NCBI GenBank assembly: GCA_035760625.1
Contig: DASTSP010000042.1
Location: forward strand, 1 to 43,795
Length of the DNA stretch: 43,795 bases
Source: Minisyncoccota bacterium
Lineage (GTDB): Bacteria > Patescibacteriota > Minisyncoccia > Phycocordibacterales > UBA918
Direction: 5' to 3'
Shown: piece by piece, positions 76-34,834 of the stretch
Position numbering within the stretch: the stretch's first letter is position 1
Layout: the number at the start of each line of letters is the position of its first letter
Made by a program: the position numbers and the translations under genes
The notes under the pieces: generated by a model
The model's input: the letters and a program-made list of their open reading frames with translations, nothing else
Told to the model about the DNA's origin: nothing
Database searches by the model: none

Positions 76-1761
76 GTGATGCGTATGGAAGGAGAGATAC
101 GAGAGCTCATCGACGCCGCGCTTGCCGCGAAGGGTCTCGACGCCGTCGCCGTTACCGTCGAGCACCCGGCCGATGAGTCGCACGGCGACTACGCGACGAA
201 CGCGGCGCTCGTCGCCGCGAAGCGACTGGGCGCGAATCCTCGCGCGCTCGCGGAAGACCTCGTGGCCCAGATGGCGGGGAAGTCGCCGAACATTGAATCC
301 ATCGAGGTCGCAGGACCCGGGTTCATCAATTTTCACATTGCACGGAGCTTCTTCGCGGAAGCCGTCGCGAACGCACGTGCGAAGGGGGACGCGTACGGAA
401 CGAACGATACGCGAAAGGGCCAGGAGATACTCTTCGAGTACACGAGTCCGAACCTATGGAAGCCGCTCCATGTCGGGAATCTGGTCGGAAATATAGTCGG
501 TGAGTCCGTCTCGCGGCTCTTCGAAGCGGAGGGTGCGACGCTCCGTCGCATAAATTACCCGTCGGACATCGGCCTAACCGTCGCGAAGGGCGTCTGGGGC
601 CTTAAGAAGACGGGCGGCGACCCCGAAGATATCAACGCCATTGGCGAGGCGTACCGGGTTGGAAACGAGGCGTATGAAACCGACGAGACCGCGAAGACGG
701 AGATCGAGGCGGTGAACCGCGCGCTCTACGCGGGCGACGACGAAGGACTAAAAGCGCTTCGCGAGAGGGGGCTTCGGACGTCGCACCGCCACCTTATGGA
801 GCTTTGCCGCATGCTCGGGACGTCGTTCGACCTCGAGATACGCGAGAGCGAGGTGAGCGATATCGGCACGGAGCTCGTTCGGACGCATACGGGCGACGTG
901 TTCGTGGAGAGCAACGGCGCGGTCGTCTTCCCGGGTGAGCAATATGGACTCCATACGCGCGTCTTCCTCAACTCGCAAGGTCTCCCGACGTACGAAGCGA
1001 AGGACCTCGGTAACTTCGCGCGGAAGGAACGTGCGTACCCCCATTGGACGCACTCGTATATCGTGACGGGCGGGGAACAGCGCGAGTATTTCATGGTTCT
1101 CTTCGAGGCGATGCGAAGGGTGTTCCCGGACACTGCCGATAAGATCCTCGCGCACATCCCCACGGGATTTCTCACGCTCACGACCGGGAAGATGTCCTCG
1201 CGGAAGGGAAACGTCCTCACCGCGGAGTCGCTTCTTGCGAGCCTTATGGAGGAGGTAGAGAAGCGAGCGACGGAGAGCCGCGCGGAGAACCTTGCCTCGC
1301 TCGTCGAAGAGGTCGCTGTCGGCGCGCTCAAGTATCAGATACTCCGCCAGGCCGCAGGGCAGGACATCGTCTTCGATAAAGAGCGCGCGCTCTCGCTTGA
1401 GGGAGACTCCGGCCCGTACCTAATGTACGCGCACGCACGCATGAGCTCCATCGAGGAGAAGGCCGCGGCGGCGGGTATGCACGCGGGAACGGACGCACCA
1501 GAGGTGCCGTACGCTCTCGAGCGCTTTCTCTACCGCTTTCCCGAGGTCGTTCTCCGGGCCGGTCACGAGTGCGCGCCGCACCACCTCGTCGTCTACCTCA
1601 CCGAACTCGCGAGTCGCTTTAACGCCTTTTACGCCGTGGAGAAGATCGTCGATGACGGCGACCCGTATGCCCCCTATAAGCTCTCGCTCACGAAAGCCGC
1701 GCGCGTCGTTCTTCGAAACGGGCTCGCGCTTCTCGGTATCGCGGCTCCGGAGCGAATGTAG
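76..1761 (+). CDS. argS: arginyl-tRNA synthetase
   Basis: 561-aa ORF with class I aaRS blocks (KPLHVGN HIGH-like, GKMSSRKG KMSKS-like) and an ArgRS-type C-terminal anticodon-binding region. Start is ambiguous (GTG 76, ATG 79, ATG 85). ATG 79 lies 7 nt after a TAGTAT -10-like hexamer at 67-72. Confidence 0.93.
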   Translation: MMRMEGEIRELIDAALAAKGLDAVAVTVEHPADESHGDYATNAALVAAKRLGANPRALAEDLVAQMAGKSPNIESIEVAGPGFINFHIARSFFAEAVANARAKGDAYGTNDTRKGQEILFEYTSPNLWKPLHVGNLVGNIVGESVSRLFEAEGATLRRINYPSDIGLTVAKGVWGLKKTGGDPEDINAIGEAYRVGNEAYETDETAKTEIEAVNRALYAGDDEGLKALRERGLRTSHRHLMELCRMLGTSFDLEIRESEVSDIGTELVRTHTGDVFVESNGAVVFPGEQYGLHTRVFLNSQGLPTYEAKDLGNFARKERAYPHWTHSYIVTGGEQREYFMVLFEAMRRVFPDTADKILAHIPTGFLTLTTGKMSSRKGNVLTAESLLASLMEEVEKRATESRAENLASLVEEVAVGALKYQILRQAAGQDIVFDKERALSLEGDSGPYLMYAHARMSSIEEKAAAAGMHAGTDAPEVPYALERFLYRFPEVVLRAGHECAPHHLVVYLTELASRFNAFYAVEKIVDDGDPYAPYKLSLTKAARVVLRNGLALLGIAAPERM

Positions 1762-1800
1762 GTTCACGCTTGCTTCATGGCCTCTCCGGTACGATAGGGC

Positions 1801-1830
1801 GGAAGGGAGACAGACTGTCTTCCGCTTTAT
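1801..1830 (+). terminator. hairpin plus T-rich tail downstream of argS
   Basis: GGAAGGGAGACAG / CTGTCTTCC imperfect stem followed by GCTTTATAAATT. Weaker than the other terminators in the window. Confidence 0.4.
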
Positions 1831-2063
1831 AAATTAACGTGCGGCTATGGACAACAGCAAGGATGACAAGAAGAACGACCGCCAGCATGGGAACCGCTAA
1901 GCGGTAGGCGGAGAATCGAACATCGAAACGTCGATAAGAGCACGCAAGAACGGCGAACCCATCGCCGTTTTTGTGTTTCTTCGCGGATGGCGCGCGGTTC
2001 ACGTGGATTTCACTCGTATTCCCGTATGCTTCACGGAGTTACTCGCATAATATCGCTAGCACC

Positions 2064-2600
2064 ATGAAACAAGTCGTGCTCGGACTATTCTCCTCGCGCG
2101 CCCGCGCCGAGGAGCTCATTAGACATCTCACGGAATCTCTCGGCGTACGAACCGATGATATCTCATACATCTATCGGAACACGGAAGGCGACGTCGAAGC
2201 CGCTCCGGCGACGGACGCGCACACGCCGGCCTCCGGCGCGGCGACCGGCGCGCTCGTCGGCGGGTCCGTCGGCGCGCTCGCGGGCATCGCGACCGCTATC
2301 GGCGTCATTCCCGTCATCGGACCCATCTTCGCGGCCGGCCCCTTGGTCGCCGCGCTCGGCATCGGTACGGCGAGCGCCGTCGGCACGACGGCCGTGGGAG
2401 CGGCGACCGGCGCCGTCGCCGGCGGCGTGATAGGCGCCCTCGTCAATCTCGGGGCACCCGACGTCGAGGCGAAGGAGTACGAGAATCGCATCCTCGCGGG
2501 CGACGTCCTCGTCGCCGTCACGACCGATGAGGTACCGCCGGTCCATACCGCGTTCACGACGTATGGCGCGACGGACCTCCGGACCTACGGCGCGAAGTGA
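2064..2600 (+). CDS. YflT / general-stress-protein-17M-like protein with Gly/Ala-rich central segment
   Basis: ORF track 1971..2600 trimmed to ATG 2064 (MKQVVLGLFSS...). N- and C-terminal parts resemble the GSP17M/YflT fold (VVLGLF...A...L, ...YENRILAGDVLVAV) and the centre is a G/A/V-rich hydrophobic stretch. Confidence 0.6.
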   Translation: MKQVVLGLFSSRARAEELIRHLTESLGVRTDDISYIYRNTEGDVEAAPATDAHTPASGAATGALVGGSVGALAGIATAIGVIPVIGPIFAAGPLVAALGIGTASAVGTTAVGAATGAVAGGVIGALVNLGAPDVEAKEYENRILAGDVLVAVTTDEVPPVHTAFTTYGATDLRTYGAK

Positions 2601-2630
2601 AAAACGGGCCGCGACCGCGGCCCGTTTTCG
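2601..2630 (+). terminator. rho-independent terminator
   Basis: ACGGGCCGC / GCGGCCCGT stem immediately after the stop codon, followed by TTTT. Confidence 0.8.
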
Positions 2631-2678
2631 TATTCGTGCTATGATAGCCGGGTACGCCTGATATGCGTACGCTTATAT

Positions 2679-5600
2679 ATGTCTGATACACATAGCGCCA
2701 TGGAAAACAATGAAAAGAGCGACGCCGCGCGTCGCGAGGAGGAAGTACTCGCGTTCTGGAAGGAGCGCGACATTTTTCATAAGAGCCTTACGAAGGACGC
2801 GCCGAAAGGCGATTACGTTTTCTACGACGGACCTCCGTTCGCGACGGGTACGCCGCACTACGGGCACATACTCGCGGGCACCATCAAGGACGCGATACCG
2901 CGATTCTTCACGATGCGCGGTTACCGGGTGAAGCGAAAGTGGGGCTGGGACTGCCACGGGCTTCCCCTCGAGAACATCATCGAGAAAAAGCTCGGACTCG
3001 CGACGAAGCGAGACATCGAGGAGCTTGGCGTGAAGAAGTTCAACGAGGCCGCGCGCGAGGCGGTCCTCGAATACGAGGACGACTGGAAGGAGGTCGTGCC
3101 GCGCATGGGACGCTGGGTCGACATGGAGCACGACTACAAGACGATGGACTCGACGTATACGGAGTCCGTATGGTGGGCGTTCTCGGAGCTCGATCGACAA
3201 GGTCTCGTCTACGAGGGTTTCAAATCGATGCATCTTTGCCCACGCTGCGGGACGACGCTTTCCAATTTCGAGGTGAACCAGGGCTACAAGGACATCAAGG
3301 ATATCGCGGTCACCGTCAAACTCCCGCTCCTCGGTACGGATGGAAACGTGACGGATACGTCGCTCCTCGTTTGGACGACGACGCCGTGGACGCTCCCGGG
3401 GAACATGGCCGCGGCGGTCAATTCGGAAATCGAGTACGTGAAGGTCCGCGTTCCGATAGAAGACGGTGACGAGGTCGTCATTCTCGCGAAGGAGCGGCTT
3501 GCGCAGTTGGATACCGACGCGTACGAGGTTCTCGAAACCATGAAAGGGAAGGACCTCGTCGGTCTCCGCTACGAGCCGCCTTTCGACTATTACAAGCACG
3601 AGGAGTTTCAGAATAAGGAGCACGCGTGGAAGGTGTACCACGCGGACTACGTCGAAGTCGGCGAGGAGGGGACAGGTGCCGTCCACCTCGCGCCCGCCTA
3701 CGGCGAGGAGGACCTCGAGCTCGCGAAGCGAGAAGGTATTCCCGTCATCCACCACGTCGGAGAGGATGGCCGTTTCAAGGACGTCATCACCGATTTCAAG
3801 GGGCGCCTCGCGAAGCCGAAGGACGATGACGCGACCGGCGTGACGCATCTCGAAGCGGACATCGAGGTCGTGAAAGCGCTCAAGGAACGGGGTCGTCTCT
3901 TCAGGAAGGAGAACATTACGCACAGTTACCCGCACTGCTGGCGCTGTGATACGCCGCTCCTTAATTTCGCGACGACGTCGTGGTTCGTTCGCGTGTCCGA
4001 GATGCGGGATACCCTCGTCGCCGAGAACGCGAAAATACGCTGGGTTCCCGAGTACGTCGGGCGCGCACGCTTCGGCAATTGGCTCGAAGGAGCGCGCGAT
4101 TGGGCGATCTCGCGTCAGCGTTACTGGGGCGCACCGCTACCCATTTGGAGGAATCCTAAGACGAAGGAACATCGAGTCATCGGTTCTTTGGCCGAACTTC
4201 AGGCACGCGTTCGAAAGAGCGGTAATACGTACGTCATCGCGCGCCATGGCGAATCCGTGTTCAATACGAAGTCGCTCCTAAGCTCGCTCGCAGAGACGGA
4301 GAACCCGCTTAGCGCCACGGGCCGAGAACAGGTGAAGCATGCCGCAAAGGCGCTTCGAGAGCGCGGCATCGACGTCATCTACACGTCTCCGCTCGGTCGT
4401 ACGAGGGAGACGGCGGACATGTTTGCCGAGGCGCTCGGTATGCCGAGGGAGCGCGTCATCGAAGACGAGCGACTCGGTGAGGTTCGCTTCGGCGAGTTCG
4501 AGGGGAAACTGATCGACGAATACCACGCGTACTTCAAGGACGGGCATGAACGCCTCACGAAGAGGCCGGAGGGCGGCGAGTCGTGGACCGAGTTGAAGCG
4601 TCGCATGGGGTCGTTCCTCTACGATATCGACGCGAAGCATACGGGGGAGCGCGTTCTCATCGTCTCGCATAACGGTCCTATTCAGATGCTTCGCGCCGCG
4701 GCGGCGGGAGACGACAGAGCGACGACCGCGAAGCGCATCGACGACAACGCGTACGACGTCGCGAACGCCGAGCTCTCTGATCTCGCGTTCACGCCGATGC
4801 CCCACAACGACGACTTCGAACTCGACTACCACCGACCGTACATCGACGAGATCGACCTCTTCGACCCCGATGGCAGGAAGCTCGAGCGGGTTCGTGACGT
4901 CTTCGACTGCTGGTTCGAGTCCGGCTCGATGCCGTACGGCCAGAATCACTACCCGTTCGAGAACCTCGACGCGTTCGACCCGGGGAAGGGCGCGGGATAT
5001 CCGGCCGAGTTCATCGCCGAGGGGCTCGACCAGACGCGCGGCTGGTTCTATTCGCTCCTCGTCCTCGGGACGGCGCTCTTCAAGCGCGCGCCGTATCGCC
5101 ATGTCATCGTGAACGGGCTCGTCCTCGCCGAGGACGGGAAGAAGATGTCGAAGCGGCTTCAGAACTACCCCGACCCCATGGCGCTCGCCGACCGCGTCGG
5201 CGTCGATGCGATGCGGTTCTACCTACTCTCGTCGCCGGTCGTGCGCGGCGAGGACCTCAATTTCTCCGAGAAGGAGGTTCGCGAGCTCGAGCGGAAGAAC
5301 ATCGGCCGACTCCACAACGTCCTCGCGATGTACGAGATGTACGCCGACGGCACCGCGGCGTCGGACTCCTCGGACAATGTCCTCGACCGATGGATGGTCG
5401 CGCGCCTTCGCGAGGCGACGAAGGAGATGACCGACGGGTACCTCGCGTACGAGCTCGACCGCGCGACGCGCCCCATCGAGGGACTCATTGACGACCTTTC
5501 CGTCTGGTATCTTCGCCGTTCGCGCGAGCGTCTCAAGGGCATCGACGCGAAGGACCGCGCGCGCACTCTCTCGACGCTTCGCTACGCGCTCCGCACCGTC

Positions 5601-6197
5601 GCGCTCCTCATGGCACCGGCGATGCCGTTCTACGCGGAGTACCTCTTCGGGCGCGTGCGAGAGGCGGGGGATAGGGAGAGCGTTCACCTCATGGATTGGC
5701 CCGCTAGCGTGGAGCCCGACGGCCACATCATCGCCGACATGGCCGAGGCGCGGCGCGTCACGTCTCTCGGTCTTGAGGCACGCTCGAAGGCGAACATCAA
5801 GGTGCGCCAACCGCTCGCGCTGCTTCGGGCTCGGGCGAACGCTCGCGTCGAATATCTCGCGGACATCGTGAAGGCGGAACTCAACGTAAAGCGACTTGAG
5901 ATCACGCCAGATCTCCCGGTCGACGTCGAACTCGATACGGAGATAACCTCCGAACTTAGACGCGAAGGCGATGCGCGTGAGCTTATCCGCGCGGTCCAAG
6001 ACGCGCGCAAGGAGGAAGGGCTCGACCCGCGCGATCGCGTGACCCTCTATGTCGACGGCCGCACGCGCGACCTCCTCATGGGCTTCGAGAAGGAGCTCTC
6101 GCACGTCGTCGGCGCCGAGGAGATCGCGGTGGGCGAGACGACGAAGGAGGTGAAGACCGAGGGAGAACCGCTCCGGTTCTCCATCGCGAAGCGATAA
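2679..6197 (+). CDS. ileS: isoleucyl-tRNA synthetase, type-2 (eukaryote-like), with a nested histidine-phosphatase domain
   Basis: 1172-aa continuous ORF with PPFATGTPHYGH (HIGH), CP1 editing-domain blocks (TTTPWTLPGN), ISRQRYWGAPLPIW, DCWFESGSMPY and KMSKRLQNYPDP (KMSKS, type-2 flavour). Confidence 0.95.
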   Translation: MSDTHSAMENNEKSDAARREEEVLAFWKERDIFHKSLTKDAPKGDYVFYDGPPFATGTPHYGHILAGTIKDAIPRFFTMRGYRVKRKWGWDCHGLPLENIIEKKLGLATKRDIEELGVKKFNEAAREAVLEYEDDWKEVVPRMGRWVDMEHDYKTMDSTYTESVWWAFSELDRQGLVYEGFKSMHLCPRCGTTLSNFEVNQGYKDIKDIAVTVKLPLLGTDGNVTDTSLLVWTTTPWTLPGNMAAAVNSEIEYVKVRVPIEDGDEVVILAKERLAQLDTDAYEVLETMKGKDLVGLRYEPPFDYYKHEEFQNKEHAWKVYHADYVEVGEEGTGAVHLAPAYGEEDLELAKREGIPVIHHVGEDGRFKDVITDFKGRLAKPKDDDATGVTHLEADIEVVKALKERGRLFRKENITHSYPHCWRCDTPLLNFATTSWFVRVSEMRDTLVAENAKIRWVPEYVGRARFGNWLEGARDWAISRQRYWGAPLPIWRNPKTKEHRVIGSLAELQARVRKSGNTYVIARHGESVFNTKSLLSSLAETENPLSATGREQVKHAAKALRERGIDVIYTSPLGRTRETADMFAEALGMPRERVIEDERLGEVRFGEFEGKLIDEYHAYFKDGHERLTKRPEGGESWTELKRRMGSFLYDIDAKHTGERVLIVSHNGPIQMLRAAAAGDDRATTAKRIDDNAYDVANAELSDLAFTPMPHNDDFELDYHRPYIDEIDLFDPDGRKLERVRDVFDCWFESGSMPYGQNHYPFENLDAFDPGKGAGYPAEFIAEGLDQTRGWFYSLLVLGTALFKRAPYRHVIVNGLVLAEDGKKMSKRLQNYPDPMALADRVGVDAMRFYLLSSPVVRGEDLNFSEKEVRELERKNIGRLHNVLAMYEMYADGTAASDSSDNVLDRWMVARLREATKEMTDGYLAYELDRATRPIEGLIDDLSVWYLRRSRERLKGIDAKDRARTLSTLRYALRTVALLMAPAMPFYAEYLFGRVREAGDRESVHLMDWPASVEPDGHIIADMAEARRVTSLGLEARSKANIKVRQPLALLRARANARVEYLADIVKAELNVKRLEITPDLPVDVELDTEITSELRREGDARELIRAVQDARKEEGLDPRDRVTLYVDGRTRDLLMGFEKELSHVVGAEEIAVGETTKEVKTEGEPLRFSIAKR
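4221..4817 (+). other. in-frame histidine phosphatase (PGAM-like, His_Phos_1) domain insertion within ileS
   Basis: aa ~515-712 read VIARHGES...SPLGRTRETA...GEFEG...PEGGES...VLIVSHNGPI, the full RHG / R / E / H signature set of branch-1 histidine phosphatases. It is flanked by the IleRS blocks PLPIW and HRPYIDE. Confidence 0.8.
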
Positions 6198-6772
6198 TGG
6201 CCTATAAGACGTACATCACGAACGCGCTCGTTTGCGCCGGGTTCGACAGCCATAGCGCGGACCGCTCGTTCCTTCTTTTTACCCGTGAAGCGGGGATGCT
6301 CTTTGCGAGCGCGAAGGGCGTTCGCAAAGAGATCTCGAAACACCGGTACGCGCTCCAAGAGTGTTCCGAGGCGCGCGTCACGCTCGTTCGCGGAAAGGCC
6401 GGCTGGAGGGTGACGGGCGCGGAGCCGGTGCGTAATTTCTATGCGATGGCGAGGACGCGCGAAGCGCGCGCGCTTCTCAAGAACGCCATTCTCCTCATAC
6501 GGCGAGTCATGCACGGAGAGACGCCGCACGCTGGCGTCTTCGACGATGTCATCGCGTCCTTCGAGCGGATGCATGACCATCGCTATGAGACCCTGGGGAG
6601 CGTGCTCTCGCTCCGCGTTCTCCACGCGCTCGGATACATCGCCCCCTCGCCGGAATATGACCTATTCCTCTCGCCGACGTTCCCGTTCTCCGCGGTCGGT
6701 GACCTCAAGGACGAGACCGCCGAAGCGCTCGAGCGCGCGGTCGAACGCGCGCTCGTCGAGAGCCACCTCTGA
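6197..6772 (+). CDS. recO: probable DNA repair protein RecO (short form)
   Basis: 191-aa ORF whose start overlaps the ileS stop by 1 nt. The N-terminal OB-fold-like pattern and size are consistent with compact RecO. Assignment is by eye only. Confidence 0.5.
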   Translation: MAYKTYITNALVCAGFDSHSADRSFLLFTREAGMLFASAKGVRKEISKHRYALQECSEARVTLVRGKAGWRVTGAEPVRNFYAMARTREARALLKNAILLIRRVMHGETPHAGVFDDVIASFERMHDHRYETLGSVLSLRVLHALGYIAPSPEYDLFLSPTFPFSAVGDLKDETAEALERAVERALVESHL

Positions 6773-6801
6773 CCCGGAGGCCCTGTGTTATACTCGTAGA
6801 T

Positions 6802-8796
6802 ATGTCGAACGAGGAAGCGCGACGAGAACAACCCGAGCCGTCGGACCCGCGTCGAGTCCCCGAGGATCGCATCAAAGAGCTTCGCGAACGTCTCTACGCG
6901 CGTGGCGATGCGCCCACGGACGTACGGCACAAGCTCCCCGAGCGCCCGCATGAGCCGCTCCGCTCGGATATCCAGCCGGCCCGGCCCGCGCCCGAACCTG
7001 AAACGGAGCGAGCGGAAAAGCCTCGGGAAGAGCAGACGGTACCGTATACTAGACCCATGGCCGCAAACAGCATGCGAAGTTCGTTTCGTAAGAAATTCCT
7101 CATATTCGGCTTCCTCTTCTTCGTCATCGCGATCGGGCTTTCCGCCGCGTTCATGTTCCTCGGCACCCATTCGGTCTCGGGCGAGAACATCAGCGTGAAC
7201 GTCACCGGACCGCTTACCGTGAACGGCGGCGGGGAGTACCCCTTCCAGGTATCGATCGCGAACCAGAACACCGTCCCCATCCAGTCCGCGACCCTCATTG
7301 TCGAATATCCCGCGGGGACGCACAGCGCGACCGACCCCAATGCGGAGGTCTCGATCATTCGTCAGCCGCTCGATACGATCGGCTCCGGTGAGATCGTGAA
7401 CATACCGCTTCGCGCGCGTATCTTCGGTGAGGAGAACGACGAAAAAGAGATCAAGGTCTCCGTCGAGTACCGTGTCGAAGGCTCGAACGCGACGTTCGAG
7501 AAGGAAGCGGCGCCGCTCTCGTTCAAGGTCGGCACGTCACCCGTCGTTGTCACCATAGATGGCCTCAAATCCATCTCTTCGGGACAGGAACTCGACTTCA
7601 CCATCACCGTCCAATCGAATTCGCCCGCGCCGCTCTCGAATCTTCTCCTCAAGGCGACGTACCCAGACGGTTTCGATTTCACGTCGTCGAAGCCCGAGAC
7701 GCTCGCGGGCGAGGATACGTGGGGCATCGATACGCTGAAGCCGGGAGAGAAGAAGGTCATCAAGGTGACGGGGCTCATGACGGGCTACGAGGACGAAACG
7801 CGCTCGATCACCGTCGAGGCCGGCGTTCCCGCCGGAGCGGACATCAGCCATATCGCATCGATGCTCGCCTCCGCGACCGCGGACGTGAAGATAGAGAAGT
7901 CGTTCCTCGGCGTCGACCTCTCGGTGAACGGTATGGAGACGGAACCGGTCATCATGAACGCGACCGAGGTCGCGAACGCGCGCGTTACCCTCACGAACTC
8001 CCTTGATACGGCGATCTACGACGGCAAGGTGACCATCGAACTCACGGGGAACGCGCTCGACGAGTTCAACGTGAAGTCGGCGGGCGGATTCTTCGATTCC
8101 TCGAAGAACACCATCACATGGGACAGCGCCGAGTTCGAGAACCTCAAGGAGATATTGCCAGGCGAGGACGTCATCCTCGGATTCACGCTCGAGCCGAAAC
8201 AGAACGTCGGTACCGCGCCGGAGATCCACCTCAAGGTCACGGCGGAGGGCTCGCGCGTCTTCGAGGACCGCGCGCCGGAGAAGCTCTCGGGCATCGCAGA
8301 GCGTACCGTGAAGATCGAGAGCATCTCGTCGGTTGATGCCGCCGCGTACCATGCGACCGGACCGTTCACGAACACTGGTCCTATACCGCCCGTCGCCGAA
8401 GAGGTCACGCAGTACACGCTCACCTTCCGCGTGAAGACCGGCGCGAACGACGTGACCGGCGCGGAGGTGACCGCGGCGCTCCCGCAGTACGTGAGCTGGC
8501 TCGACCTCGTCTCCGAAGGAGCCGACGTCTCGTACAATCCGACGACGCGAACGGTGAAATGGACGCTCGGCAAGGTCGACGCGAACACGACGAAGGAGAC
8601 GTCGATGCAGGTGTCCTTCAAGCCGTCTCTCTCGCAGGTCGGGACGATGCCGACCATTCTCGAAGCCCAGCGCTTCAAGGCGACGGACCGGTTCACCGGT
8701 ACCGTCGTCCGCGCGGAGCATCCGGCCGTCACGACGAGCCTCACGAATGAGCCCGACTCTGCCGCCGAGGATGGCAGGGTTCGCGCGAGCGAGTAG
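6802..8796 (+). CDS. hypothetical membrane-anchored extracytoplasmic protein
   Basis: 664-aa ORF with a charged or disordered N-terminus, one TM helix (FLIFGFLFFVIAIGLSAAFMFLG), then a long beta-rich T/V/E-rich region resembling tandem Ig-like (DUF11/CARDB-type) modules. Confidence 0.7.
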   Translation: MSNEEARREQPEPSDPRRVPEDRIKELRERLYARGDAPTDVRHKLPERPHEPLRSDIQPARPAPEPETERAEKPREEQTVPYTRPMAANSMRSSFRKKFLIFGFLFFVIAIGLSAAFMFLGTHSVSGENISVNVTGPLTVNGGGEYPFQVSIANQNTVPIQSATLIVEYPAGTHSATDPNAEVSIIRQPLDTIGSGEIVNIPLRARIFGEENDEKEIKVSVEYRVEGSNATFEKEAAPLSFKVGTSPVVVTIDGLKSISSGQELDFTITVQSNSPAPLSNLLLKATYPDGFDFTSSKPETLAGEDTWGIDTLKPGEKKVIKVTGLMTGYEDETRSITVEAGVPAGADISHIASMLASATADVKIEKSFLGVDLSVNGMETEPVIMNATEVANARVTLTNSLDTAIYDGKVTIELTGNALDEFNVKSAGGFFDSSKNTITWDSAEFENLKEILPGEDVILGFTLEPKQNVGTAPEIHLKVTAEGSRVFEDRAPEKLSGIAERTVKIESISSVDAAAYHATGPFTNTGPIPPVAEEVTQYTLTFRVKTGANDVTGAEVTAALPQYVSWLDLVSEGADVSYNPTTRTVKWTLGKVDANTTKETSMQVSFKPSLSQVGTMPTILEAQRFKATDRFTGTVVRAEHPAVTTSLTNEPDSAAEDGRVRASE

Positions 8797-8858
8797 CGCA
8801 TTTGCTCGCCGCTCCATATCTCTATATAGTGTAGGAATTACGCGGTAATCCCGTTTCC

Positions 8859-10172
8859 ATGGAACACAGCGCCGAAAAGATGGAGAAGATCGTGTCGCTC
8901 TGTAAGCGGCGTGGGTTCGTGTTCCAAGGCTCCGAGATATACGGCGGCTTCGCGGGGGCGTATGACTACGGGCCCCTCGGCGTCGCTCTCAACAACAACC
9001 TGAAGCGCGAGTGGTGGAAGATGTTCGTCGAATCGCGGGAGGATATGTACGGGCTCGACGCCGCCATTCTCATGAACGAGAAGGTGTGGGAGGCGTCCGG
9101 CCACACCGGCGCGGGCTTCAGCGATCCCTTGGTCGAGTGCGAGAAATGCAAGCGTAGGTTCCGCGCAGATCACCTTGAGAACAAGGAGACGTGTCCGGAG
9201 TGCGGCGGGAAGCTCGGCGAGGAGCGCCAGTTCAATCTCATGTTCGAGACGAAGGTCGGTGCACAGGGCGACGCGAAGTCGTATCTTAGGCCCGAGACCG
9301 CGCAGGGTATCTTCGTCAATTTCAAGAACGTCCTCGACTCGATGAGCCCGAAGCTCCCCTTTGGTATCGCGCAGATAGGGAAGGCGTTTCGAAACGAGAT
9401 CGCGCCCCGCGAATTCCTCTTCCGCGTCCGCGAGTTCGAGCAGGCGGAGATCGAGTACTTCCTCAAACCGGAGGATTGGGAGCGCCTCTTCGAGGCGTGG
9501 CGCGAGGACGTGTGGAAGTGGATCGACCACATCGGCGTCGCGCGCGAGCACGTTCGCGAGCTCGAGGTCGACGCGAACGACCTCGCACACTACTCGAAGC
9601 GCACCGTCGACTTCGAGTACGACTACCCGGGGAAGGGTTTCGCCGAGCTCCTCGGTCTCGCGTACCGCACCGACCATGACCTCCGCTCGCATATGGAGGC
9701 GTCCGGCGAGAAGCTCGAGTATATCGAGCCGGATGGCACGCGGTTCATCCCCCATGTCATCGAGCCCTCCTTCGGGCTCGGTCGCGCGTTCATCGCGGTT
9801 CTCGCGGAAGCGTACACGGAGGACGAGATGAACGGCGAGGTGCGTACGTATCTCAAGCTTCCGACGCACCTCGCGCCGTACCGCGCCGCGGTATCACCGC
9901 TCCTGAAGAACAAACCCGAGCTCGTCACGAAGGCACGCGAGGTCTTTTCCATGCTCAAGCAGGAATTCGGGAACGTCGCGTGGGACGACAACGGCAACAT
10001 CGGAAAGCGCTATAGGCGGCAAGACGAGATCGGTACGCCCGCATGCATCGTCATCGATTTCGAGACCATCGAGGGAGAGACGAAGGATACGGTGACCGTT
10101 CGCGACCGTGACACGGGCGCACAGGTGCGCGTCCCGATCGCAGACCTCGTGTCGCACCTCACGAGCGCGTAA
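8859..10172 (+). CDS. glyQS: glycyl-tRNA synthetase (dimeric class II type)
   Basis: 437-aa ORF with RRGFVFQGSEIYGG, FRNEIAPR and GLGRAF motifs. An alternative start is ATG 8880. Confidence 0.95.
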   Translation: MEHSAEKMEKIVSLCKRRGFVFQGSEIYGGFAGAYDYGPLGVALNNNLKREWWKMFVESREDMYGLDAAILMNEKVWEASGHTGAGFSDPLVECEKCKRRFRADHLENKETCPECGGKLGEERQFNLMFETKVGAQGDAKSYLRPETAQGIFVNFKNVLDSMSPKLPFGIAQIGKAFRNEIAPREFLFRVREFEQAEIEYFLKPEDWERLFEAWREDVWKWIDHIGVAREHVRELEVDANDLAHYSKRTVDFEYDYPGKGFAELLGLAYRTDHDLRSHMEASGEKLEYIEPDGTRFIPHVIEPSFGLGRAFIAVLAEAYTEDEMNGEVRTYLKLPTHLAPYRAAVSPLLKNKPELVTKAREVFSMLKQEFGNVAWDDNGNIGKRYRRQDEIGTPACIVIDFETIEGETKDTVTVRDRDTGAQVRVPIADLVSHLTSA

Positions 10173-10180
10173 ATTTCATT

Positions 10181-11599
10181 ATGGCGAACAAGTATCTCAC
10201 CACGACGCTGCCGTACGTGAACGCCGACCCGCACGTCGGCTTCGCGTACGAGCTCGTCGCTGCCGACGCGCTCGTCCGCTACTGGAAGGCGACCGGAGAC
10301 GACGTCTTCTTCAATACGGGAACGGACGAGCACGGTCAGAAGATAGCCGGGAAGGCCGACGAGAAGGGGGAGAGCCGCCAGGCGTACGTCGACCACTACG
10401 CGAACGAGTTTCGAAAATTGATACCGGCCCTCGGCGTTTCCGAGGACATCCATTTCATACGTACTACCGACGAACGCCACAAGAAGGCGGCCGAGGAGCT
10501 CTGGCGCCGGTGCGAGGCCGCGGGCGACATCTATAAGAAGAAGTACAAGGGGCTCTACTGCGTCGGCGACGAGATGTTCGTAAAGGAGAGCGAGCTCGTT
10601 GACGGCAGGTGCGCGAATCACCCGAACCTCGAACTCGAGGAGATCGAGGAGGAGAACTACTTCTTCAAGCTCTCGAACTACCAGTCGTACCTCGAGGAAT
10701 ACCTCTCTCGGGACGGTGTCATCGTCCCCGAGTGGCGACGGCAGGAGGCGCGGAGCTTCGTGAAGAAGGGTCTCGAGGACTTCAGCATCTCTCGCGAGAA
10801 GGCGCGTCTCGATTGGGGCATTCCGGTCCCGGGCGATGAGAACCAGGTCATGTACGTATGGTTCGACGCCCTCACGAACTACGTCTCGACCTTGGGCTGG
10901 CCCGAGGATACTGAAGGAAACTACGAGAAATTCTGGAAGAGCGGCGAACCGATGCAGATAGCGGGGAAGGACCAGGTCCGCTTCCAGTCCGTCATGTGGC
11001 AGGCGATGCTCAAATCGGCCGGTCTCGCGCCGACCGCGAAGGTCCTCTACCACGGGTTCATCACCTCGGGAGGTCAGAAGATGTCGAAGTCATTGGGGAA
11101 CGTCGTGAGTCCCTTCGAGCTCGTCTCGCGCTACGGCACAGAGGCGACACGCTACCTCCTCCTTCGCCACGTCCATCCCTTCGAGGATACTGACGTCACG
11201 TGGGAGCGCCTCGACGAGTGGTACAACGCGGGACTCGTGAACGGCATCGGGAACCTCACCGCGCGCATCCTCAAGATGTCCGAGACGCACCTCGGCGCGT
11301 TCGAAGCCCACGACTTCATATCTGAGATGAAGGGCATGGAGGAGTATGACTGTAAGAGCGCGCTCGACTACCTCTGGTCGCGCATCCAGGCGCTCGATGA
11401 GAAGATAGCCGAGACCGAGCCTTTCAAGCTCGTGAAGACGGAACCCGAACGTGCGAAGGCGATCCTCGAGGAACTGCGCGCCGACCTCTACAGGCTCTCC
11501 ATCGAACTCCGGCCGTTCATGCCCGCGACGGCCGTGACGATAGAGGAGGCGGTCAAAGCGAACAAGAAGCCGGAGAATCTCTTCGCGCGCATCGACTGA
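10181..11599 (+). CDS. metG: methionyl-tRNA synthetase (short form, no C-terminal tRNA-binding domain)
   Basis: 472-aa ORF with TTLPYVNADPHVGF (HIGH), GTDEHGQKI and KMSKSLGN. Confidence 0.95.
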   Translation: MANKYLTTTLPYVNADPHVGFAYELVAADALVRYWKATGDDVFFNTGTDEHGQKIAGKADEKGESRQAYVDHYANEFRKLIPALGVSEDIHFIRTTDERHKKAAEELWRRCEAAGDIYKKKYKGLYCVGDEMFVKESELVDGRCANHPNLELEEIEEENYFFKLSNYQSYLEEYLSRDGVIVPEWRRQEARSFVKKGLEDFSISREKARLDWGIPVPGDENQVMYVWFDALTNYVSTLGWPEDTEGNYEKFWKSGEPMQIAGKDQVRFQSVMWQAMLKSAGLAPTAKVLYHGFITSGGQKMSKSLGNVVSPFELVSRYGTEATRYLLLRHVHPFEDTDVTWERLDEWYNAGLVNGIGNLTARILKMSETHLGAFEAHDFISEMKGMEEYDCKSALDYLWSRIQALDEKIAETEPFKLVKTEPERAKAILEELRADLYRLSIELRPFMPATAVTIEEAVKANKKPENLFARID

Positions 11600-11600
11600 T

Positions 11601-11966
11601 ATGAGGAAGGTGTACAACAAGCTCGTTCGGGACAAGATGATCGACGTCTACAAGCACGACGTCGAGAACAAGATAAGCTCGAGCGATTACAGCGTTCGCT
11701 ACCTCAATCCGGCGGAGACCTTGGAGGAATTAAAGAACAAACTCCTCGAGGAGGTGGCGGAGGTCTTCGAGGCGTACGGGAAGGACAGGGAACACCTCAA
11801 GGAGGAGATCGCCGACGTCATCGAGGTCATCGACGCGATACTCTTTCACAACGGCATGACCCTCGACGAAGTTCTCACAATACGCGACGCGAAGAAGGCG
11901 AAGAAAGGCGGTTTCGAGACCGGCCTGTATCTCGAGAGCATCGATTACTTCGATAGCGCCGAATAA
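11601..11966 (+). CDS. MazG-superfamily all-alpha NTP pyrophosphohydrolase (COG4997-like house-cleaning enzyme)
   Basis: 121-aa ORF with N-terminal KLVRDKMI and a central EExAEVxE...EEIADVIEV acidic helix pair typical of MazG/PRA-PH-like proteins. Confidence 0.7.
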   Translation: MRKVYNKLVRDKMIDVYKHDVENKISSSDYSVRYLNPAETLEELKNKLLEEVAEVFEAYGKDREHLKEEIADVIEVIDAILFHNGMTLDEVLTIRDAKKAKKGGFETGLYLESIDYFDSAE

Positions 11967-11998
11967 GAAACATACGATTAATCGTATGTTTCTTATTC
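11961..11998. repeat. 38-bp perfect palindrome (P1) spanning both convergent stop codons
   Basis: GAATAAGAAACATACGATT|AATCGTATGTTTCTTATTC, every position verified complementary. It contains the TAA of the + gene (11964-66) and the TTA (stop on the - strand) at 11993-95. It probably acts as a bidirectional terminator and/or second operator. Confidence 0.9.
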
Positions 11999-12409
11999 TC
12001 TTGTGAATTTGAGCAAGGTTTTCTTCCAGCGTCCTCGGCCCCTCGGAGGAAAGCCCATCTGCAGGATCCTTTCCAGCGTTTCCACTATCCGAGTGTATTC
12101 GCCTTTGTCTTCCGTTACGAACCGTCGTATTGCGCCGTATTTCCCAATTTCATAATTGAGCCTTATACGGTCGGTGGTAGAGGGGCTGAGATTGAGAAGT
12201 ACGGACACTCGATACGAAGAGACGCCTTCGGTGTAGAGGATGATCGCCGCGAGTCGTTTCGCGAACATGAGCCGCTCTTCCTCTCCGAATAGTTCGCTCA
12301 GAAACGCGGACGCTCGTTTCGAATCGAGTTGCGCGACAACCTTGTATAACTGATTCAAGAGTTGGTCTTCCTTCTTATGTGGTAGTTTACGTTTGGAGAC
12401 ATGTGTCAT
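11993..12409 (-). CDS. TrpR/YerC-YecD family DNA-binding protein
   Basis: 138-aa ORF with ...EERLMFAKRLAAIILYTEGVSSYRVSVLLNLSPSTTDRI..., the helix-turn-helix pattern of Trp-repressor-like YerC proteins. GC is visibly lower than in the neighbours. Confidence 0.7.
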   Translation of the reverse strand: MTHVSKRKLPHKKEDQLLNQLYKVVAQLDSKRASAFLSELFGEEERLMFAKRLAAIILYTEGVSSYRVSVLLNLSPSTTDRIRLNYEIGKYGAIRRFVTEDKGEYTRIVETLERILQMGFPPRGRGRWKKTLLKFTRE

Positions 12410-12444
12410 ATCACAATCATACGATTAATCGTATGATTGTGATA
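12409..12444. promoter_or_regulatory. 36-bp perfect palindrome (P2): candidate operator overlapping divergent -10 elements
   Basis: TATCACAATCATACGATT|AATCGTATGATTGTGATA shares the 18-bp core CATACGATTAATCGTATG with P1. TATGAT reads on both strands (12432-37 on +, 12416-21 on -). The minus-strand copy ends 6 nt before the ATG at 12409. Confidence 0.7.
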
Positions 12445-12454
12445 GGGAGAGCGT

Positions 12455-13087
12455 GTGCTATGCTGGTTCGCAATGACGGAGAACGGAAAAGGTATCGTGG
12501 ACATCGGTAGACTCATCCTCGCGTTCGCGAAGGTAAACCGCGCAACGACGATGGAGGACGGCGTGACGCCGGAATCGGACACCGACCACACGGTCATGCT
12601 CTCCGTCGTCGCCTCTGCCTTCGCCAAGAAGCTCTACCCGGACTCGCTCGACGTGGGGCGAGTCGCCGAGTTCGCCATCGTCCACGACCTCGTCGAAGCG
12701 TACGCCTGTGACACCGATAGTTTTGGCATCAGCGCGGAGGCAAAGCGAGCGAAGGACGAGCGAGAGCGCGAAGCGTACCTTCGCATCGAGCGCGAGTTTC
12801 GGGACACGTTCCCGTGGATTCCCGAGACCATCGCGGCGTACGAGCGCCTCGATAGCCGCGAAGCGCGTTTCGTGAAGACCGCGGACAAGCTCCTGTCGAA
12901 GGTGACGCATATCCTGAACGGCGGCGCATACTTCAAGTCGCGCGGCATGGATGAAGAGACGATGTGGAATAATTACCAGCAGATGGTGCGCGCCGCCGAG
13001 GAGAAGTACGGCGCGGAATTCCCGGAGGTCCTCGCCCTCATGGACGAGCTCATTAGGGAAGCGAAGCGAATCGCCTATGGAGCATAA
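12455..13087 (+). CDS. HD-domain phosphohydrolase (YfbR-like 5'-nucleotidase family)
   Basis: DTDHTVMLSVVA ... AIVHDLVEAYACD ... KTADKL give the H..HD..D pattern. GGGAGA Shine-Dalgarno at 12445-50. The start may be GTG 12455 or ATG 12473. Confidence 0.8.
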   Translation: MLCWFAMTENGKGIVDIGRLILAFAKVNRATTMEDGVTPESDTDHTVMLSVVASAFAKKLYPDSLDVGRVAEFAIVHDLVEAYACDTDSFGISAEAKRAKDEREREAYLRIEREFRDTFPWIPETIAAYERLDSREARFVKTADKLLSKVTHILNGGAYFKSRGMDEETMWNNYQQMVRAAEEKYGAEFPEVLALMDELIREAKRIAYGA

Positions 13088-13475
13088 GACCTTCAAGGAC
13101 ATCTACGCGATAGCGGAACGGAACGTGAAGGAGAATCCGTACGTACGCGAAAAGGAGGCCGATGAGATCATCGGTATCTATCTCGATTGGCTTCGCGGCG
13201 AGGTAGAAGAAGTGAGGGATGAAACGAAACCAAGGAATAGGATACATCTCGCCGATGAGCTCGCAGATATACTCTGGGTGTACGCGGGGCTCTTAGCAGT
13301 TCTCAAGGATAGAGGGTATATCGATTCGGTCGAAGAGGTCTTCATGCAGTCGCACGAGAAGTATACCGAGCGTATGCCGGCATTTTTACGAAGCTCCGCT
13401 GAGCTGTGGGAATCCATCAAGGCGAGGCAGAAGGAAGACCTCGCCCTGCGTCATCAAAAGGAATATGGACAGTGA
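13077..13475 (+). CDS. MazG-type nucleotide pyrophosphohydrolase
   Basis: ORF track 12951..13475 trimmed to ATG 13077 (MEHKTF...). LRGEVEEVRDE...ADELADILW acidic motifs are present. It overlaps the HD gene end by 11 nt. Confidence 0.8.
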   Translation: MEHKTFKDIYAIAERNVKENPYVREKEADEIIGIYLDWLRGEVEEVRDETKPRNRIHLADELADILWVYAGLLAVLKDRGYIDSVEEVFMQSHEKYTERMPAFLRSSAELWESIKARQKEDLALRHQKEYGQ

Positions 13476-14277
13476 ATTTCGATACATCGACGTGCACACG
13501 CACCTTAACCTCGATGCGTTCGACGCTGATCGCACGGCGGTCGAAACGAGGACTCTCGAAGACCGCGTCGCACACATAAACGTAGGGACCGCGCGGGAAA
13601 CAAGCGAGGCGGCGATTCGTCTCGCAGAGTCGTTTAATGCCGGCGTCTACGCGACGGTCGGCCTCCATCCCGTTCGCGCGAGCGGCGCATCGGAGCACGA
13701 GGGCACGGAGGCGTTCGACCACGAGGCGTTTCAGGCGCTCGGAGCGCATGAGAAGGTCGTCGCGATCGGCGAGTGCGGCCTCGACTACTTTCGCGTCGAG
13801 AAAGATACGAAGGCGAAGCAGGAGGGGGCCTTTAGCGCGCAGATAGCGCTCGCGAACGAGCTCGAAAAGCCGCTCATGCTCCACATCCGCGACGAGAAGG
13901 GAAAGATGGACGCGTACGAGGATGCGCTCGCCATACTGAAGCGCGAGGCGAAGGTTCTCGGGAACGTGCACTTCTTCGCGGGGACGTACGACATCGCGAA
14001 GCGCTTCTGGGAGATGGGGTACACGACGTCCTTCACCGGCGTCGTCACCTTCGCAGATGAGTACGATGACATCATTAAAAACGCGCCGCTCGACATGCTC
14101 CACGCGGAGACCGATGCGCCGTACGTCGCTCCCGTGCCCTTTCGTGGGACGCGGAACGAGCCCGCGCACGTCCGCGAAGTGTACGCGCGCATCGCGGCGC
14201 TTCGAAGCGAGGACCCTGAAGTAGTGCGCCGGGCCCTTCTCGAGAACGCCCGTCGGCTCTTCGGCGTCCTTATTTGA
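13465..14277 (+). CDS. tatD: TatD-family metal-dependent hydrolase/DNase
   Basis: YIDVHTHLN, GECGLDY, LHIRD, VHFFAG and ETDAPY motifs. It overlaps the preceding gene by 11 nt, which suggests an operon. Confidence 0.9.
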   Translation: MDSEFRYIDVHTHLNLDAFDADRTAVETRTLEDRVAHINVGTARETSEAAIRLAESFNAGVYATVGLHPVRASGASEHEGTEAFDHEAFQALGAHEKVVAIGECGLDYFRVEKDTKAKQEGAFSAQIALANELEKPLMLHIRDEKGKMDAYEDALAILKREAKVLGNVHFFAGTYDIAKRFWEMGYTTSFTGVVTFADEYDDIIKNAPLDMLHAETDAPYVAPVPFRGTRNEPAHVREVYARIAALRSEDPEVVRRALLENARRLFGVLI

Positions 14278-31356: not shown

Positions 31357-31852
31357 GCATATTCCGGAAACGAGATTGATAAGGTCTCGTTTCTAAAATC
31401 CTACGTGTTCGACGCACGTAGGTGTGTTCGCTATTCGAGAGAATAGCGGACGCCAGGTAAGCGCATGCAGCGAAGAGGACAATGCTTCGGCAGGGTCTTT
31501 TCGTCCGCTGCATGCACGACACAAAGTCTCACCTGAGCTTGTATCTCAGGTGAGCGCACTCAAAAATTGTACAGCGGTGTACAGCGTTCGTGTAATAGAC
31601 TATCGCGGCACAAAAGATGCCGTGTCCAGCCTTCCTTACAGGAACGATAAGGGTGTATGGTGGATGCCTTGGCTTCAAAGAGCGATGAAGGACGTGGTAT
31701 GGCTGCGATAAGCGCGGGGGAGATGCCAAACGATCGTAATATCCCGCGATGTCCGAATGAGGAAACTCACCTGCTTACGGCAGGTACCCTCGCAAGAGGG
31801 AGCGCACCCGGTGAAGTGAAACATCACAGTAGCCGGAGGAAGAGAAAGCAAC

Positions 31853-31918
31853 ACAGGGAGGTTTCTTTCTGATCGGAGGGCCGCAAGGCTCACCATTACG
31901 GTCAGGAAGAAGCTTCTT
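31853..31918 (+). other. 66-nt helical expansion/intervening segment in 23S domain I
   Basis: Inserted between GAAAGCAAC and GCGATCCCCTAAGTAGCGGCGAGCGAA, which are contiguous in E. coli. It folds as TTTCTTTC/GGAAGAAG plus CTGATCG/CGGTCAG plus a GCC-GCAA-GGC tetraloop hairpin. Confidence 0.7.
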
Positions 31919-32188
31919 GCGATCCCCTAAGTAGCGGCGAGCGAAAAGGGAAGAGCCCAAACCATTCGTGTTTACACGAATGGGGTTGTAGGGCAGGAGC
32001 GTCATTTAGTTGAGAAGAGTCACCAATTGGTGTGATAGCAGAACGCGTTGGGAAGCGCGACCCTAGCAGGTAATAGTCCTGTATGCGAAATTACATCAAC
32101 TCTTTTGCTTCTGTTCCTGAGTAGTTCGAGACATGAATAGCTCGAATGAATCTGGGAGCACTAACTCCTAAGGCTAAATATCTTTGAA

Positions 32189-32234
<46 letters not shown>

Positions 32235-32802
32235 GGAGAGGGGAGTGAAATAGAACTGAAACCATACATCTACAAGGAGTCGGAGCCCTGCGGGGCGACG
32301 GCGTGCCTATTGAAGAATGAGCCGGCGAGTGTATCTGTATCCTTTGTCTAAGCGGTAACCCCGCGGAGGCACAGTGAAAGCGAGCGTGAATAGCGCGAAT
32401 ATAGGGTACGGATACGACCCGAAGCGGGACGAGCTTGCCATGAGCAGGGTGAAGCGGGGGTAAAACCCCGTGGAGGCCCGAACCGGTGGACCGTTCAAAA
32501 TCCTCGGATGACTTGTGGTAGGGAGTGAAAAGCTAATCGAGTTCCGTAATAGCTGGTTCTCTCCGAAACAGCTTTAGGGTTGGCGTCGCGTGTTCCTCCT
32601 GGGGGTAGAGCACTGGAAGGTCTAAATAGGGGGAAACCCCGTTAGACCTATCAAACTACGAATACCAGGCAGTTAGAGCGCGGCAGTTAGACTACGGGGG
32701 AGAAGCTCCGTTGGTCAAAAGGGAAACAGCCCAGATCGCCAGTTAAGGTCCCTAAATATATGCTCAGTGCGTCTTGAGGAGGTGAGGATTCACTAACAGT
32801 CA

Positions 32803-32834
<32 letters not shown>

Positions 32835-33676
32835 GAAAGCGTAACAGCTCACTGATCGAGAGTCCTCGCGCCGAAGATGATCGGGGCTTAAGCATATTAC
32901 CGAAACTGCGGATTGTACGTTTCTTCGGAAACGTACAGTGGTAGGAGAGCGTTCTCTGTTGCGATGAAGGGAAGGTGAGAACCGCCCTGGAGTACAGAGA
33001 AGTGAGAATGCCGGCACAAGTAACCGCAAGATGGGTGAGAACCCCATCCGCCGAAATACCAAGGTTTCCTTCGCTATGCTGATCAGCGAAGGGTTAGTCG
33101 GTCCTAAGCCGATCCCGACAGGGGGAGGCGATGGATAGCAGGTTAATATTCCTGCACACTGTTCTGTTCGAAGGAGGGACGAAGCGTTGTACTCGAAGCA
33201 TCTTATTGGATTGGTGCTGGAGCTACGAGGAGGTCTGGTAGGCAAATCCGCCGGACATTAACTCCGAGTAGAGTCTGAACCTAAGGCTACGGCCGAGGGA
33301 ACGAGAGGAGCACGCTTTCGAGAAAAACTTCTAAGGTTAAGCAGGACGGTTCCGTACCGCAAACCGACACAGGTGGTAGGGTCGAGAAGACCAAGGCGAA
33401 CGAGTGAGGGGTCCTTAAGGAACTCGGCAAAAAAGCGGCCGTAACTTCGGGATAAGGCCTGCCCTTTCTCCGCAAGGAGGCGGGGCCGCAGCGAAAGATT
33501 TCCTGGCGACTGTTTAACAAAAACACAGCTCTCTGCGAAGACGTAAGTCAATGTATAGAGGGTGACGCCTGACCAATGCCGGAAGGTCAAACATGGAAGG
33601 TGGTACGGATTCGTCCGTACTGCTGGGCTATGTAAGCCCCGGTCAATGTCAGCGATAACTATAATCGTTCTAAGGT

Positions 33677-34505: not shown

Positions 34506-34543
<38 letters not shown>

Positions 34544-34815: not shown

Positions 34816-34834
34816 AGGGAATGCTGCACATGGC
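34816..34834 (+). repeat. 19-bp direct repeat copy 1 (overlaps the 23S 3' end)
   Basis: AGGGAATGCTGCACATGGC is identical to 34913-34931. Confidence 0.9.

Follow-up and report, generated by a model that had tools for sequence, protein, structure and literature searches.

A histidine phosphatase domain nested in the CP3 subdomain of a parcubacterial type-2 isoleucyl-tRNA synthetase

The type-2 isoleucyl-tRNA synthetases (IleRS2) of S. cerevisiae (7d5c/8wnd), P. megaterium (8c8v) and T. thermophilus (1ile) share one synthetase body, which runs from the Rossmann domain with its HIGH and KMSKS motifs through the type-2 C-terminal domain, and the solved enzymes carry a short loop of ~8 residues in connective peptide 3 (CP3). 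Small branch-1 histidine phosphatases such as PhoE/YhfR (1h2e, 1ebb), PspA (4ij5; a phosphoserine phosphatase), Rv2419c (4pz9; the glucosyl-3-phosphoglycerate phosphatase GpgP) and CobC (6nru; alpha-ribazole phosphatase) are enzymes of ~200 aa with a common fold and a catalytic set consisting of an RHG motif, a second Arg, a Glu and a second His. Here, we describe a gene that combines these two families, the ileS gene of contig DASTSP010000042.1 (assembly GCA_035760625.1, Minisyncoccota bacterium), the first 43,795 nucleotides of which were analysed and are called the window below. The encoded protein has the synthetase body of the solved IleRS2 enzymes, but in place of the short CP3 loop it contains a complete 206-residue enzyme domain. 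In its predicted fold and its identical catalytic set this domain resembles the small branch-1 phosphatases, whereas it is not free-standing, both of its termini being spliced into another enzyme.

Database models provide precedents for each half of this arrangement. An IleRS with a second enzyme domain is already represented by NF040702 (isoleucine--tRNA ligase, N-acetyltransferase domain-containing), and a fusion between a CobC-like histidine phosphatase and a nucleic-acid enzyme by NF005567 (bifunctional RNase H/acid phosphatase); however, both involve other partner domains and lineages, and the window protein scored 296 vs. 1999 bits and 103 vs. 326 bits, respectively. For the GNAT-containing IleRS, the literature search turned up only the unrelated SbzA/SbzC system. 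Each part of the window protein comes from a well-known family, and their combination is common in sequence databases, but no paper describing an IleRS, or any other synthetase, with a nested histidine phosphatase was found in the open-access literature or in bioRxiv. The original prediction, made from the sequence alone, knew of no described IleRS of this kind; this agrees with the literature searched but not with the databases, where thousands of public entries, including the window protein itself, have the architecture. The public record of the window protein (P0001; 1165 aa, NCBI, metagenome-assembled genome of Candidatus Paceibacterota; 100% identity) has its start called 7 codons downstream of the first ATG (window 2679-2699), and its name is only 'class I tRNA ligase family protein', even though it passes the cutoff of the ileS equivalog model.

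The features of the gene, with the basis of each in brackets, are as follows.

2679-6197, + strand: complete ileS, a 1172-aa type-2 (eukaryote-like) IleRS with the nested domain (open reading frame and TIGR00392)
2679-4205, + strand: upstream IleRS part, aa 1-509, with the first Rossmann half, CP core, CP1, CP2 and the first CP3 half (yeast alignment)
2856-2867, + strand: HIGH signature H60-Y61-G62-H63, aminoacylation site (read from the sequence)
3372-3392, + strand: Thr-rich motif WTTTPWT of the CP1 editing domain, aa 232-238 (read from the sequence)
4206-4823, + strand: whole inserted segment, aa 510-715, 206 aa, comprising the phosphatase domain and two linkers (yeast alignment)
4206-4232, + strand: N-terminal linker, aa 510-518, RVRKSGNTY (homologue alignment)
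4233-4733, + strand: His_Phos_1 (PF00300) match, aa 519-685 (Pfam)
4242-4250, + strand: RHG motif R522-H523-G524, with H523 as the predicted phospho-accepting nucleophile (superfamily mechanism)
4398-4400, + strand: R574, second phosphate-pocket Arg, in the SPLGRT motif (alignment)
4479-4481, + strand: E601, predicted general acid/base (alignment)
4668-4670, + strand: H664, second catalytic His, in VSHNG (alignment)
4788-4823, + strand: C-terminal linker, aa 704-715, FTPMPHNDDFEL, followed by the native CP3 motif D716-x-HRPYID (homologue alignment)
4824-6194, + strand: downstream IleRS part, aa 716-1172, with the second CP3 half, second Rossmann half, anticodon-binding domain and type-2 C-terminal domain (yeast alignment and Pfam)
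5142-5156, + strand: KMSKS loop K822-M823-S824-K825-R826 (KMSKR) (read from the sequence)

The identity of the nested segment was evaluated using profile searches and structure prediction. Pfam PF00300 matched with E = 4.8e-38 and 131.2 bits (gathering cutoff 21.7) over profile positions 2-168 of 194, and the interval 4221-4817 (aa 515-713) scanned alone gave the same family at E = 1.9e-39. The motifs listed in the original prediction were found at the residues it had assigned to them, namely RHGES at 522-526 (nt 4242-4256), SPLGRTRETA at 570-579, GEFEG at 605-609, PEGGES at 630-635 and VSHNG with H664. In the full-length AlphaFold2 model, the insert was the most confident part (10-residue pLDDT blocks of 90-96), and modelled alone it reached a pLDDT of 95.3 and a pTM of 0.91. 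The best Foldseek matches were PhoE 1h2e, PspA 4ij5/4ij6, GpgP 4pz9, CobC 6nru and a riboflavin-pathway histidine-family phosphatase (HFP), with probability 1.00, TM scores of 0.69-0.79, root-mean-square deviations of 2.3-3.3 Å and 24-29% identity. Together, the profile, motifs and fold uphold the assignment to the branch-1 histidine phosphatases with a complete catalytic signature, and the models show the inserted domain as an autonomous alpha/beta unit, in which the full catalytic set of the superfamily is present.

The curated subfamily models gave a uniformly negative result. The dPGM models TIGR01258 (34.9 vs. 81.7 bits) and NF038349 (archaeal dPGM; 98.1 vs. 225 bits) were not reached, nor were the GpmA-type mutase models (21-53 bits vs. 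cutoffs of 305-421), PspA (81.9 vs. 350 bits), CobC (TIGR03162; 82.3 vs. 162.9 bits), GpmB (62.3 vs. 261 bits) or SixA (24.6 vs. 74.5 bits). Membership in dPGM, PspA, CobC and SixA was thus discarded, each score being below its curated cutoff, and since no curated subfamily model was reached, the substrate is not transferable by homology. Classical mutases ranked below the small phosphatases in Foldseek, and the sequence search ranked them alike. With dPGM (GpmA) the insert has in common the superfamily, the nucleophilic His of the RHG motif and the phosphate pocket; it differs in its scores, in a C-terminal half that is not alignable and in lacking the mutase-type length and C-terminal tail (~200 vs. 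~250 aa). The earlier label 'PGAM-like' is therefore apt for the superfamily but not for the type, which is that of a phosphatase. Furthermore, no Hint/intein or homing-endonuclease family matched the whole protein or the insert in Pfam at E ≤ 0.01, as the original reading of the segment had it, and an intein or other mobile element was ruled out because such matches are missing and the phosphatase fold accounts for the entire segment.

The position of the insert was determined by alignment to yeast cytoplasmic IleRS (8wnd, 7d5c). Residues 10-509 aligned with yeast residues 4-490 and residues 716-1078 with 499-886, leaving ~8 yeast residues (about 491-498) where the window protein has 206; the earlier estimate of about 195 extra residues thus proved right. 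An equally long segment in ordinary IleRS was ruled out by this short yeast loop and by the splitting of the ileS profile at the insert. The interval 4221-4817 put forward earlier encloses the domain, but the boundaries lie ~15 nt further out on the 5' side and 6 nt further out on the 3' side. Because yeast residues 490 and 499 both fall inside yeast CP3, defined as residues 459-526 (PMC7955072), the insert sits in the middle of CP3. Hence, the placement 'inside the catalytic core' is accurate in so far as CP3 is a subdomain of the catalytic domain, but the site is peripheral and the Rossmann core itself is not hit. In yeast IleRS, the CP2-CP3 linker ARDWNVSRNRYWG forms part of the pocket for the CCA end of the tRNA (PMC7955072); in the sequence, this linker stands immediately upstream of the insertion site. 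In the window protein, the upstream IleRS part ends with ...GSLAELQA.

Both junctions are conserved. In the 120 close homologues, N516 of the N-terminal linker was invariant, with S514 in 96% and G515 in 92%, and N516 was also present in 80 of 81 species representatives. In the C-terminal linker of the same homologues, F704 and P708 were invariant and H709, N710 and D711 were kept in 94-98%, and P708 was retained in 121/121 distant homologues. The GC content across both junctions was flat (0.59-0.63).

The conservation of the domain was assessed in three alignment sets comprising 120 close homologues, 81 species-level sequences and 121 more distant sequences (322 in total). Thirteen positions (N516, R522, H523, N529, S570, R574, R598, E601, E634, R642, H664, F704 and P708) were invariant among the close homologues, and R522, H523, N529, R574, E601 and H664 were present in 81/81 species-level sequences. 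In the distant set, R522, H523, S570 and H664 were found in 121/121 sequences and R574 in 119/121. The invariance of R522, H523 and H664 in all 322 aligned sequences bears out the claim that the segment is not decayed filler, a possibility that the invariant catalytic residues rule out. The length of the insert varied from 200 to 212 aa in the 81 sequences and from 186 to 211 aa in the 121 distant ones. Mean identity to the window protein over 80 species representatives was 41% for the insert, 71-75% for the Rossmann halves, 60% for CP1 and 34% for the C-terminal domain, so that the insert is under constraint, but of the degree seen in a peripheral domain. As judged from these alignments, it has been held under long-term purifying selection and its length has been tightly constrained. 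In addition, pairwise identities of insert and host were correlated (Mantel r = 0.51, reached by 0/500 permutations), a result consistent with one ancient insertion followed by vertical descent.

The distribution of the architecture was examined in searches that list the best-scoring matches, and every listed match carries the insert. In the first search, the 120 best homologues (62-68% identity), which came from NCBI, JGI, ENA and Logan assemblies, all had the same Pfam architecture. A second search, seeded with the distant fusion P0164, found PF00300 in 120/120 of the best matches down to 41% identity, including Sungiibacteriota and 'Parcubacteria bacterium DG_74_2'. When one genome per GTDB species was scanned, at least 569 confirmed stretches were obtained, and the 80 best all spanned flank, insert and flank, thus placing the same insert at the same site in related genomes, as a survey of them had been proposed to reveal. 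These 80 genomes included Kaiser-, Nomura-, Wolfe-, Adler-, Taylor-, Yonath- and Lloydbacteria, Paceibacteria, Minisyncoccia and others. The insert is also carried by complete genomes, for example CP060229.1 (Candidatus Nomurabacteria, L053). An exhaustive search of 1.84 billion representatives with the insert alone returned 22,219 relatives, and IleRS flanks were present in 102 of the nearest 150 representatives at 50% identity. Since the same architecture recurs in hundreds of independent assemblies and GC is flat across the junctions, an assembly chimera is excluded. From these sequence surveys, the nested-phosphatase form appears to be the standard IleRS across much of Parcubacteria (Paceibacterota/Minisyncoccota; in the NCBI taxonomy, Candidatus Paceibacterota is the phylum Minisyncoccota), and the domain is almost certainly real, nested and clade-wide.

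Two further observations concern the database records. Many of the short 'free-standing' proteins among the top matches to the insert lie on contigs of 0.8-1.5 kb, and one was found to cluster with a protein of 723 aa; such matches probably represent pieces of IleRS fusions and were set aside on this ground as candidate free-standing donors. Many species-representative records titled 'uncultured Candidatus Saccharibacteria bacterium' (L001, L007, L009-L011 and others) encode an insert-bearing IleRS of the Parcubacteria type that is 50-62% identical to the window protein across the insert region and flanks, and these titles are probably generic pipeline labels.

Some relatives contain more than one copy of the domain. 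Two tandem His_Phos_1 copies occupy the same CP3 site in, for example, P0194 (1468 aa), and one truncated relative has at least 4. Multi-copy inserts were recorded for P0194, P0131, P0140, P0158, P0160, P0199, P0225 and P0132, and the catalytic residues were kept in nearly every tandem copy. The accommodation of 2 to 4 or more copies in one loop argues against a critical role of exact geometry with respect to the active sites of the IleRS.

The integrity of the host synthetase was likewise evaluated. The reading frame opens with ATG and runs for 1172 aa with no internal stop and no frameshift, just as had been claimed. The NCBIfam equivalog model TIGR00392 matched with 859.2 bits (cutoff 621.4) in two stretches separated by the insert, and Pfam placed His_Phos_1 between two stretches of tRNA-synt_1, the nesting anticipated from the sequence, followed by Anticodon_1 (aa 903-1047) and DUF5915 (PF19302; aa 1074-1171). 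Among solved structures, yeast cytoplasmic IleRS, P. megaterium IleRS2 and T. thermophilus IleRS were the best relatives, at E = 1e-214 to 1e-195, and type-1 IleRS structures matched more weakly (E = 1e-84); the T. thermophilus editing-domain structure 1wk8 matched with E = 4.6e-33. Moreover, the full-length AlphaFold2 model (mean pLDDT 80, pTM 0.68) superposed on P. megaterium IleRS2 8c8v and the yeast IleRS-tRNA complex 8wnd with TMt values of 0.70-0.78.

In 68 aligned homologues, H60, Y61, G62 and H63 of the HIGH signature were invariant, as were W232, T233, T234, T235, W237 and T238 of the Thr-rich motif, which functions in editing in class Ia synthetases, and the second editing motif G331-x-G333-x-V335-H336-x-A338-P339. 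K822, S824 and K825 of the KMSKS loop were also invariant, and K822 and K825 were found in 121/121 distant sequences. The conserved motifs show that the IleRS retains its synthetic and editing signatures, which points to an intact host enzyme. Among the distant relatives (the P0164 set), Gly replaces the first His of the HIGH signature (window aa 60, nt 2856-2858) in 62/121 sequences, a pattern that resembles the GxHH motif tied to mupirocin hyper-resistance in IleRS2 (PMC10485003); the window protein itself, unlike these relatives, has the canonical HYGH.

The genes around ileS, for which strands were not stated, are listed below by window position.

76-1761, strand not stated: ArgRS (neighbourhood annotation)
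1971-2600, strand not stated: 209-aa Gly/Ala-rich open reading frame between argS and ileS (list of open reading frames)
6197-6772, strand not stated: RecO_N-like protein (neighbourhood annotation)
6802-8796, strand not stated: DUF11 protein (neighbourhood annotation)
8859-10172, strand not stated: class II aminoacyl-tRNA synthetase (neighbourhood annotation)
10181-11599, strand not stated: short MetRS-like protein, 472 aa (neighbourhood annotation)

MazG-like, HD and TatD genes come after the MetRS-like gene (window 76-14277). The neighbourhood is rich in synthetases, and the gene order ArgRS, IleRS, RecO-like, DUF11, class II aminoacyl-tRNA synthetase was present in 48-60 of 81 loci. No conserved kinase, RNA-repair gene or other suggestive partner was found in the neighbourhood across the 81 loci, and a functional partner gene nearby was ruled out, the conserved synteny being housekeeping only. 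The 209-aa open reading frame at 1971-2600 had no Pfam match, and within the first 10 kb of the window the GC content is highest in its region, at up to 0.73. Elsewhere in the window, the 23S rRNA match in the 31637-35392 region measured 3182 nt for a 2925-position model, and the excess of ~250 nt suggests insertions; a tRNA at 35010-35081 (Rfam, 47.6 bits), whose anticodon was not named by ARAGORN, lies between 23S and 5S, and no 16S rRNA gene was found within the window.

Based on the conserved residues, the nested phosphatase is very probably catalytically active. A possible history and mechanism can be outlined, the chemical steps following the established chemistry of the histidine phosphatase superfamily. 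A small phosphatase of the PhoE/PspA/CobC type would have entered a CP3 surface loop of a housekeeping IleRS2, probably once and early in the lineage, and would have been inherited vertically since. H523 would attack a phosphate held by R522, R574 and H664, and a phospho-histidine intermediate would form while E601 protonated the leaving group as general acid/base; water would then hydrolyse the phospho-histidine and free the phosphate. The domain would hydrolyse a small phosphorylated metabolite or nucleotide, catalytically independently of aminoacylation, and the CP3 loop would serve as a permissive site for its display, by which constitutive co-expression is assured in a minimal genome.

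Our best reading, at about even confidence for the statement as a whole, is that the insert works as an autonomous phosphomonoesterase, which a permissive CP3 loop tethers and which acts on such a small substrate. This reading is favoured because of the tandem copies, the faster evolution of the insert and its phosphatase-type structural neighbours. Several points weigh against it. The chemistry of the domain is read from conservation throughout, and among the 121 distant relatives E601 is E in 100 and D in 21, and N529 varies there; these differences may be alignment shifts or real changes. Moreover, the single exact site and the conserved linkers (S514-G515-N516 and F704-x-x-x-P708) could equally reflect a fixed, functionally coupled orientation, and their retention in a lineage that sheds dispensable sequence would favour explanations in which the phosphatase works together with its host.

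Such coupling could mean that a 3'-phosphate, 2'-phosphate or opened cyclic phosphate is removed from damaged tRNA(Ile) before charging, or that a nucleotide by-product (AMP) is processed, with the CP3 position being mechanistically important; we regard this as unlikely. The original prediction had put forward a domain placed next to the aminoacylation and editing sites and acting on tRNA as speculation, and the idea is still of that standing. A related version, in which the domain would provide quality control of the tRNA(Ile) 3' end or feed released AMP into the nucleoside-salvage/RuBisCO pathway of Parcubacteria, is similarly doubtful. The strong conservation of the insertion site, the length (186-212 aa) and both linkers over very deep divergence would fit coupling, and so would the location of the CP2-CP3 linker just upstream, which lines the CCA-end pocket in yeast IleRS (PMC7955072). 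The pTM of the full-length model is compatible with a defined rather than floppy arrangement, and among NCBIfam models the insert matches best to the phosphatase half of the bifunctional RNase H/acid phosphatase, albeit far below cutoff (106 vs. 326 bits). On the other hand, 2 to 4 or more tandem copies cannot all occupy one spot, the evolution of the insert greatly outpaces that of the catalytic core (41% vs. 71-75% identity), and conserved RNA-repair genes are absent from the neighbourhood. Nor has a role as RNA-end phosphatase, to our knowledge, been established for any branch-1 histidine phosphatase, which also counts against coupling. A protein-directed role, as a phosphohistidine, phosphoserine or phosphotyrosine protein phosphatase (like SixA, PGAM5 or Sts), or a structural or tRNA-binding appendage that holds phosphate without turnover, seems quite improbable. 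The superfamily does include protein phosphatases, the insert has a weak SixA match, and eukaryotic synthetases gain appended domains with non-catalytic roles; however, the SixA score is far under its cutoff, the nearest structures are small-molecule phosphatases and no conserved kinase partner lies nearby. The proton donor E601, as invariant as the nucleophile in the close and species-level sets (120/120 and 81/81), points to turnover rather than mere binding.

It is very improbable that the insert moonlights as a phosphoglycerate mutase (PGM) and fills that step of lower glycolysis. The domain lies within the PGAM superfamily, a relationship to the small monomeric S. pombe mutase 1fzt can be detected (E = 1.4e-11; TM score 0.74), and IleRS makes AMP. 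Some Parcubacteria, in which the AMP/RuBisCO nucleoside pathway feeds in 3-phosphoglycerate, have been reported to lack PGM in surveys (Jaffe et al., PMC7304191). Nevertheless, the insert falls below the TIGR01258, NF038349 and GpmB cutoffs given above, its alignment to classical mutases ends after about residue 110, and its best structural neighbours are phosphatases. In the His-Gly-Asn motif of mutases, Gly directly follows the His, whereas the residue after H664 varies across the family (N/G/A/E). As for an artefact (a chimeric assembly, a wrongly joined contig or a mobile insertion in decay, for example an intein), no supporting point was found, the source being a metagenome-assembled contig, and its probability is negligible: the architecture is present in more than 240 non-redundant proteins from NCBI, JGI, ENA and Logan and in 80 species-representative genomes, and flat GC at the junctions, the lack of a Hint/intein match and the invariant catalytic residues all speak against it.

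Aminoacyl-tRNA synthetases rank with the most conserved enzymes known, their cores rarely contain new catalytic domains, and discussion of added domains has mostly concerned eukaryotes. In the present case, an apparently active phosphatase has been retained within the IleRS of a large, ubiquitous, mostly uncultured bacterial lineage with minimal genomes over very deep divergence. The insert provides a clean, synapomorphy-like molecular marker for the Parcubacteria-type IleRS, and it also carries a risk of mis-annotation, as metabolic surveys based on hidden Markov models could count or miss it as a PGAM-family enzyme. The protein is a concrete, expressible target for biochemistry, and a co-cultured member of the class Minisyncoccia exists (PMC12281837). 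If the phosphatase were coupled to tRNA or nucleotide handling, it would add a new layer of translation-linked metabolism in candidate phyla radiation (CPR) bacteria, and the IleRS would be a class I synthetase with a third active site acting on its own substrate or product.

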